This document shows positions 49,810 to 49,990 of a stretch of DNA of 64,000 nt, one piece after another (the first letter of the stretch is position 1; every line of letters begins with the position of its first letter). The notes beneath the pieces are model-generated. The model saw only the letters and a list, made by a program, of their open reading frames with translations. It did no database searches and was not told the DNA's origin. Source of the DNA: Dictyostelium discoideum (Eukaryota); assembly GCA_000004695.1 (NCBI GenBank), contig CM000152.2, positions 6,208,001-6,272,000 on the forward strand, given 5' to 3'. A program made the translations under genes and the position numbers.

Positions 49810-49979
49810 TACCAAAAATTGATTTATTACCAAAAATTGGTGGAACACTCCAAAAGATGGTAGACAATTTGATCGATAATGATATCATTAGAACATTTAA
49901 TAAAACATTATTCCAAGTTTAAAAAAAATGGAGGATGAACTTCAAGCAATTTTAGATGAGTTATCAAATCTTAGAAAGT

Positions 49980-49990
<11 letters not shown>
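49810..49990 (+). pseudogene. Chimeric gene-fragment relic: reverse complement of the ddx18 3' end (..[16 protein letters not shown]..) fused to an internally deleted copy of rpb4 exon 3 (NDIIRTFNKTL...KKMEDELQAILDELSNLRKLN*)
   Basis: ccaaaagatggtagacaatttgatcgataat (49835-49865) is the complement of ttatcgatcaaattgtctaccatcttttgg at 19803-19832. That string itself resembles ttaacgatcaaattgtctaccatcttttgg at the ddx18 stop (22158-22187). The rpb4 middle part (AYAEKFSRYKN...SLIPSL) is deleted. Confidence 0.6.

Follow-up and report, generated by a model that had tools for sequence, protein, structure and literature searches.

The window analysed here is a stretch of 64,000 nucleotides of chromosome 3 of Dictyostelium discoideum AX4 (positions 6,208,001 to 6,272,000 of contig CM000152.2, GCA_000004695.1), with a base composition of about 20% G+C (about 80% A+T) and many homopolymers. 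Two open reading frames of 284 amino acids, one at 17357-18211 on the plus strand and the other at 50530-51384 on the minus strand, match exactly the AX4 proteins DDB_G0282737 and DDB_G0282815 (XP_639343), respectively. Both proteins carry the monalysin-type beta-barrel pore-forming domain PF18063 of Pfam (hereafter BB_PF), which in DDB_G0282815 is found with an E value of 1e-61. Each of the two genes lies in one arm of an imperfect inverted duplication, delimited by self-blastn at approximately 15936-20505 (left arm) and 49127-53873 (right arm; the stretch paired with the left arm is about 53767-49127). The genes and features of the arms and of their surroundings are the following:

12567-14999 (approximate), plus strand: functional polA2 (DNA polymerase alpha subunit B; Pfam DNA_pol_E_B), parent of the polA2 relics
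15936-20505, no strand: left arm, the source locus, with BB_PF gene DDB_G0282737, gutted polA2, rpb4, spacer, ddx18 relic, junction J1 (ddx18/polA2) and polA2 relic
17357-18211, plus strand: BB_PF gene DDB_G0282737, left arm, intact
18347-18563: gutted polA2 fragments, left arm
18742-19440, minus strand: functional rpb4, within the left arm
19812-19843, minus strand: ddx18 relic, left arm
19844-19884, plus strand: polA2 relic, left arm
22156-24041, minus strand: functional ddx18 (DEAD-box helicase; Pfam DEAD, Helicase_C and CTE_SPB4), parent of the ddx18 relics
from 24888: 3-hydroxyanthranilate dioxygenase gene, a neighbour
48774-48941, plus strand: tom7, left flank of the right arm
49127-53873, no strand: right arm, a derived insertion between tom7 and a ttc7-like gene
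50530-51384, minus strand: BB_PF gene DDB_G0282815, the sole gene kept intact in the right arm
54357 onwards, minus strand: ttc7-like TPR gene, with its 3' end near 54357, other flank of the right arm

The 1.7-kb core of the arms (17180-18832 versus 51587-49901) is 91.5% identical when gaps are included, and an inverted pair of 207 nt at 98% identity covers the region of the rpb4 3'UTR and spacer. Substitution divergence between the arms amounts to about 3.7% in non-coding DNA and 7.8% in the BB_PF coding sequence, with a dS of about 0.07 between the two BB_PF genes. The window was compared with related loci of D. firmibasis (L001), of D. cf. discoideum ACTFIZ (L003) and ACTFIY (L008, GCA_054859205.1), and of the strain ACTFIW (L006, GCA_054859355.1). 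In D. firmibasis the interval between tom7 and ttc7 measures approximately 440-540 bp (437 bp between aligned flanks) and is without the insert, and in AX4 the homologous flanks are separated by 5.3 kb (49021 to 54327). Given that the D. firmibasis interval is without the insert, the right arm is the derived, inserted copy, and sequence comparison places the left arm in the ancestral context. The extended reverse-complementary copies, together with a site that is empty in this outgroup, identify the structure as an inverted segmental duplication. The functional rpb4 and ddx18 genes had been placed by an earlier note on this DNA just inside the boundary of the left arm; this holds for rpb4, but not for ddx18 (22156-24041), given that the arm ends near 20505.

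Short repeated modules in mixed orientations occur at or near the arm ends (15936-16196, 20494-20595, 20825-20997, 53486-53873 and 51514-51905). The module at 20494-20595 matches 53873-53775, that at 15936-16196 recurs at 20825-20997 and 53486-53767, and 51514-51905 consists of tandemly repeated units of about 135 nt. No similarity between the arms is seen for 16176-16692 versus 52418-53486, and at 16211-16396 (minus strand) the left arm contains an open reading frame of 61 amino acids without a Pfam match and without a counterpart in the right arm.

The BB_PF paralogues DDB_G0282737 and DDB_G0282815 differ at 43 of their 284 residues, with a dN/dS of about 1.2 (1.16). The replacements cluster at approximately codons 95-115 and 211-222, and identity in the non-coding DNA on either side reaches 96-99%. 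Such a pattern suggests that diversifying selection or patchy gene conversion may have acted in this toxin-like family.

The RefSeq model of AX4 rpb4 has 155 amino acids, with 17 extra residues (NTLLIHLYYNSINDIIR; boundary at 18990-19040). In D. firmibasis, D. purpureum and D. citrinum, whose models have 138 amino acids, the sequence that encodes these residues belongs to the end of intron 2. When AX4 rpb4 is spliced to give 138 amino acids, the product is identical to the D. citrinum protein. The splice acceptor of AX4 rpb4 has probably been mis-called, and the gene model would need correcting.

Anatomy of the right-arm relic

Between 49745 and 50383 the right arm contains the following series of fragments:

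49745-49848, minus strand (antisense on the plus strand): relic of the polA2 C-terminal exon, matching the functional gene at 14852-14952 and beyond
49848-49879, plus strand: ddx18 relic, the last 10 codons and stop (PKDGRQFDR and stop)
49877-49880, no strand: scar of deletion 1, with 811 bp missing that correspond to left-arm 19810 to 19000, and TAAT microhomology
49881-49910, plus strand: rpb4 relic, part 1, corresponding to left-arm 18999-18970
49910-49911, no strand: scar of deletion 2, with 148 nt of rpb4 exon 3 missing that correspond to left-arm 18969 to 18822, a 1-nt overlap and a shifted frame
49911-49987, plus strand: rpb4 relic, part 2, distal exon 3 through the stop (ending in MEDELQAILDELSNLRKLN and stop), with an extra 3-nt deletion
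49988-50160, plus strand: copy of the rpb4 3'UTR and rpb4/polA2 intergenic spacer, with 1 substitution in 150 aligned nt versus the left arm
50167-50383, minus strand: gutted polA2 copy, in which the fragments matching 12872-12996 and 14670-14720 map directly

Three parent genes (polA2, ddx18 and rpb4) thus contribute to a mosaic packed into 240 nt. The earlier note had seen here a chimeric relic of ddx18 and rpb4 in the right arm, with the functional parents on the left, and this description is confirmed: the stretch is a mosaic most likely without function, and the arm belongs to an inverted duplication. The strings that it quoted are present at 49826-49987, and exact 26- and 27-mers are common with rpb4 and ddx18, where none is expected; the similarity lies in specific coding strings and not in A/T runs, to which it would be limited had the note been mistaken. 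The ddx18 27-mer TCCAAAAGATGGTAGACAATTTGATCG has three exact sites, at 22160-22186 (minus strand), 19816-19842 (minus strand) and 49849-49875 (plus strand), with 0 expected from 100 shuffles, and the rpb4 26-mer GATGAACTTCAAGCAATTTTAGATGA is found at 18770-18795 (minus strand) and 49934-49959 (plus strand), also with 0 expected by shuffling. Several details require revision. The first half of the chimera, which had been assigned as a whole to the ddx18 3' end, derives from ddx18 for 49848-49879 only, 49745-49848 being antisense polA2, and the 17-letter frame quoted for this half is no gene frame; the true ddx18 frame reads PKDGRQFDR and stop on the plus strand. The left-arm copy of the ddx18 end lies at 19811-19843, and not at 19803-19832.

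The polA2 relic was identified by blastn (14855-14952 versus 49854-49759, 88.9% identity), and a MAFFT alignment agrees with this result. Its origin is also seen in a 28-mer match with at most 2 mismatches and in an identity of 90-92% to the polA2 genes of ACTFIZ, ACTFIW and ACTFIY. When the low-complexity filter is removed, blastn matches the polA2/rpb4 spacer at 18584-18628 to 49702-49746. In the left arm, 105 nt of the polA2 relic and of the adjoining spacer, which are kept in the right arm at 49703-49807, have been lost at 19879/19880, and the scar of this loss has GTAAT microhomology.

Breakpoint extension analysis shows that deletion 1 took away the spacer between ddx18 and rpb4 and, from rpb4 itself, the promoter, exons 1-2 and the greater part of intron 2. 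What follows its scar, part 1 of the rpb4 relic, consists, in the 138-aa model, of 11 nt from the end of intron 2 and 19 nt from the start of exon 3; the same 11 nt are exon 3 under the 155-aa RefSeq model. The middle of exon 3 is missing, as the earlier note had proposed, although the loss is not of 50 codons but of 148 nt (approximately 49 codons and one base), which shifts the frame, plus the 3-nt deletion. The 24-mer across the first scar, TTTGATCGATAATGATATCATTAG, and the 19-mer across the second, AAAACATTATTCCAAGTTT, are found only in the right arm and in GCA_054883475.1 (L004), an independent assembly of D. discoideum.

The gutted polA2 copy is present in both arms (18347-18563 and 50167-50383), between BB_PF and rpb4, and has about 2 kb missing. 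It is colinear with 12811-12988 of the polA2 gene in ACTFIZ. The polA2 fragment 15042-15109 is matched at left-arm 18488-18553 only, and its presence in the right arm would follow from the colinearity of the arms.

No open reading frame crosses the junctions of the relic: the stop codon TAA of ddx18 occupies 49877-49879, and the rpb4 part has a shifted frame. Upstream, the frame of the ddx18 relic contains no ATG, and neither promoter nor ATG has been kept. For these reasons (the ddx18 stop at the junction, the rpb4 frameshift and the missing upstream ATG), a fusion gene was rejected. A processed pseudogene (retrocopy) was also rejected, since the A-run that follows the relic is present in the parent too (18718-18741) and the 150 nt past it are still homologous, at 99% identity. 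The relic has functional parents with which it shares exact 26-28-mers, colinear flanks and an intron tail, and disabling lesions. Read from these features, it is very probably a mosaic of unprocessed pseudogene fragments that arose by duplication and lies within an inverted segmental duplication.

The interval in related genomes and the question of function

The functional polA2 gene of AX4 is colinear with those of D. firmibasis, ACTFIZ and ACTFIW. In ACTFIZ, BB_PF lies upstream of polA2, and pieces of a BB_PF pseudogene lie between ddx18 and rpb4; this BB_PF-polA2-rpb4 order is also that of the AX4 arms, which are colinear with it except for the deletion of approximately 2 kb inside polA2. 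Three BB_PF copies are found in ACTFIW, a divergent strain labelled D. discoideum, and also in ACTFIY, which in addition has a DDE transposase gene and an independent rpb4/ddx18 chimera. Since the arrangements of BB_PF, rpb4 and ddx18 differ among these relatives, the interval must have been restructured repeatedly, and one functional copy each of polA2, rpb4 and ddx18 was retained at every restructuring. A literature search (Dictyostelium segmental duplication, pseudogenes, monalysin and the gene identifiers) found nothing on this locus.

Some features of these relatives are worth describing. At 10001-15559 of the ACTFIW locus, rpb4 has the opposite orientation to that seen in AX4, D. firmibasis and D. 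purpureum and is flanked by oppositely oriented BB_PF copies, as would be expected from recombination between inverted repeats. The ACTFIY chimera (14257-15409 of its locus) combines exon 1 and a portion of exon 3 of rpb4 with the DEAD-box core from an incomplete duplicate of ddx18; it reads TFHKTLEYALKFSRYKNNTSIKQVEK joined to MGFKKMIPIQAK, is annotated as a DEAD protein of 262 amino acids, and has its junction (at about 15014) at a different place from that of AX4. At 6391-7681 of the same locus, a DDE_Tnp_1/DDE_Tnp_4 (PIF/Harbinger-type) transposase gene lies between rpb4 and the BB_PF cluster.

The presence of this transposase gene in the same interval of ACTFIY, the fragments of three genes beside a cargo-like gene and the short repeated pieces at the arm ends would all fit a transposable element (Pack-MULE, Harbinger or Helitron-like) that captured gene fragments and carried BB_PF together with pieces of the host. 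Nonetheless, such an origin is improbable. All the fragments come from immediately adjacent genes and keep the ancestral order and orientation, so that capture is unneeded to explain them. The open reading frames of the ACTFIY transposase region have no tblastn match in the window, no tRNA genes were found in the tRNA scan, and neither a target-site duplication nor clear terminal inverted repeats could be recognised. Given that the tRNA and Rfam scans were both empty, tRNA-targeted retroelements and known non-coding RNAs are also unlikely.

It was also considered that the relic could be functional, whether as a chimeric gene, as the 3' end or terminator of DDB_G0282815, or as a source of antisense rpb4 RNA by read-through. 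The copy of the rpb4 3'UTR at 49988-50137 has only 1 substitution in 150 nt (99% identity), compared with about 3.7% in the other non-coding parts of the arms, and this low divergence would be compatible with a function. The same can be said of the convergent arrangement of BB_PF and the relic, which is also that of BB_PF and rpb4 in the left arm. Such a role is nonetheless very doubtful: the relic has no junction-crossing reading frame, its rpb4 part is frameshifted, its promoter and ATG are lost, and the Rfam scan gave no family match. Moreover, for the 150-nt segment of low divergence the Poisson P is about 0.03 when uncorrected for the number of windows, and gene conversion explains the 99% identity equally well. 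A more elaborate proposal, to which little probability is given, is that 49911-50137, the nearly unaltered copy of the last rpb4 codons and 3'UTR, would be kept as the terminator of DDB_G0282815, with read-through transcripts antisense to the 3' end of rpb4 mRNA regulating it in trans, and that a fast-evolving pore-forming-toxin family would make the polA2-rpb4-ddx18 interval prone to recurrent duplication, repeatedly scarring its essential neighbours and, in one strain, inverting them. The reading that best accords with the sequence is that the relic is most likely without function.

Order of the junctions and proposed history

The genes ddx18, rpb4 and polA2 are immediate neighbours in D. 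firmibasis, with 311 bp from the ddx18 stop to the rpb4 ATG. In D. purpureum, rpb4 adjoins an unannotated gene of 606 amino acids that aligns with polA2, and only this pair is seen. In the left arm of AX4, 371 bp separate the ddx18 relic from intact rpb4, and this spacer (19441-19811, with homology up to 19843) has its homologue in D. firmibasis and ACTFIW, in the spacer between rpb4 and ddx18 or in the 3' flank of ddx18. This homology indicates that ddx18 and rpb4 are ancestral neighbours and, therefore, that the ddx18/rpb4 junction of the right arm is the product of a later deletion of 811 bp. At this interval the right arm indeed differs from the left by a clean 811-bp deletion with TAAT microhomology. 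The left-arm segment 19000-19810 cannot be a later insertion, since it holds the functional exons 1-2 of rpb4, which are conserved in the outgroups. Furthermore, the ddx18 relics of both arms share the derived CGATAAT, where functional ddx18, in AX4 and in two related lineages, has CGTTAAAT.

The earlier note had taken the ddx18/rpb4 junction itself to be the footprint of the primary breakpoint of the duplication or rearrangement. The two right-arm fragments do abut, and the left arm has both parent genes nearby. However, this explanation is highly unlikely, given that the left arm holds an identical relic, with the same derived substitutions, at 371 bp from intact rpb4, that the clean deletion with TAAT explains the junction of the right arm, and that the duplicated block, in self-blastn, runs far past this junction on both sides.

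The real rearrangement junction, which the earlier note missed together with the polA2 origin of 49745-49848, is that between ddx18 and polA2, at 49848 in the right arm and at 19843-19844 in the left arm (J1). It lies about 30 nt to the left of the ddx18/rpb4 junction and joins ddx18 at codon -10 to the last exon of polA2 (at about 14852); its edge at 49848 has a 1-nt strict overlap and an imperfect motif TTTGG. A 21-mer across J1 is found only in the two arms and in the independent assembly, and J1 is not present in any of the four related loci examined (D. firmibasis, ACTFIZ, ACTFIW and ACTFIY). Given that J1 is found in both arms and in none of these relatives, and that CGATAAT is common to both ddx18 relics, J1 predates the duplication of the arms.

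The two partners of J1 are joined head-to-tail and both keep their ancestral orientation, which is the geometry of a tandem-duplication junction. The ddx18 3' end and its flank are present twice, at 19562-19843 and 21859-22187, and the interval from J1 to full-length ddx18 opens with the polA2 relic, followed by pieces that are colinear with the first unit. The predicted second unit (19844-22144) is colinear with the first only in part: the colinear pieces are 19837-19884, 20355-20550, 20987-21273, 21859-22068 and 22145-22187, among which 20987-21273 repeats the BB_PF upstream region and first 58 codons of the first unit (17238-17531). Pieces of 15895-16709 recur in this unit out of order, at 21337-21815. 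No remnant of a second rpb4 was found, either by self-blastn or by unfiltered sensitive blastn, the output of which was swamped by AT-rich noise. Taking the geometry of the junction as the sole guide, J1 may well have arisen by tandem duplication of the interval from the 3' part of polA2 to the 3' part of ddx18.

An assembly artefact in this repeat-rich region of about 80% A+T with many homopolymers has a negligible probability, given that GCA_054883475.1 reproduces 12.9 kb of the window (44490-57389) with 0 mismatches and 9 gaps, which are of homopolymer length only, and carries all three junction sequences, i.e., J1 and both deletion scars.

The relic is very probably non-functional debris, left by duplication and by subsequent deletional decay at a fast-changing toxin-like locus. 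The ancestral order was compact, with polA2 on the plus strand converging on rpb4 and ddx18, both on the minus strand. Monalysin-like BB_PF genes then entered this interval in the D. discoideum species complex and were repeatedly duplicated. In the AX4 lineage, a head-to-tail duplication would have made J1, leaving the 32-nt ddx18 relic at the ancestral distance from rpb4 and displacing functional ddx18 by 2.3 kb. One polA2 copy was gutted next, with a loss of about 2 kb that is common to both arms. Afterwards a copy of a 4.6-kb block spanning J1 (BB_PF, gutted polA2, rpb4, ddx18 relic, J1 and polA2 relic) was placed, inverted, between tom7 and ttc7, at a distance of 29 kb. The redundant rpb4 copy decayed there by the 811-bp deletion, the frameshifting 148-nt deletion and the 3-nt deletion, the first of which brought the ddx18 relic up against exon 3 and the end of intron 2. 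Independently, 105 nt of polA2 relic were lost from the left arm, at the GTAAT microhomology. These deletions probably occurred via replication slippage or microhomology-mediated end joining, although microhomologies of 1-5 nt are weak evidence at about 80% A+T. The block would have been retained for the sake of BB_PF, which is intact in both arms.

On its own the relic is of little importance. The chimera can nonetheless be read as a dated stack of scars, in which J1 is followed by the gutting of polA2, the inverted dispersal and the later deletions with overlaps of 1-5 nt. These scars mark a locus where monalysin-like pore-forming genes turn over quickly across lineages of the D. discoideum complex and where three essential single-copy genes have each been kept once. 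In the annotation, it would be correct to mark the relic as part of a pseudogene.

Comparison with known duplications and pseudogenes

The relic resembles other unprocessed pseudogenes in that it is a partial copy that keeps its flanks and an intron tail, has deletions and a frameshift, and lies beside a useful gene (BB_PF) that was retained as the redundant copies of essential genes decayed. No essential feature sets it apart from them, although it is unusually compact, with two older junctions and three later deletions superposed. With processed pseudogenes it has in common an A-run of 24 nt after the 3' end of a gene, but it keeps an intron tail, its neighbours were copied along with it, the homology extends for more than 150 nt past the A-run, and the A-run is present in the parent. 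In the manner of tandem-duplication junctions, J1 joins distal ddx18 to proximal polA2 head-to-tail and is accompanied by a truncated relic and a displaced full ddx18. In contrast with such junctions, its second unit is heavily rearranged and has no second rpb4, and the rpb4/ddx18 junction of ACTFIY is placed differently.

A large inverted duplication on chromosome 2 and other duplications of laboratory stocks have been described in D. discoideum Ax3/Ax4 (Bloomfield et al. 2008, PMC2643946). Those duplications are recent, range from at least 15 kb up to about 1 Mb and are restricted to laboratory strains, and for most of them no repeats were found at the breakpoints (PMC2643946). The two-gene duplication of chromosome 3 in the same study, which comprises a GATA factor and a kinase, is a different locus (PMC2643946). 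The structure described here is likewise an inverted segmental duplication in the same species, but it is a chromosome 3 duplication of 4.6 kb whose copies are 29 kb apart, and its age is considerable, with a non-coding divergence of about 3.7% and a dS of about 0.07.
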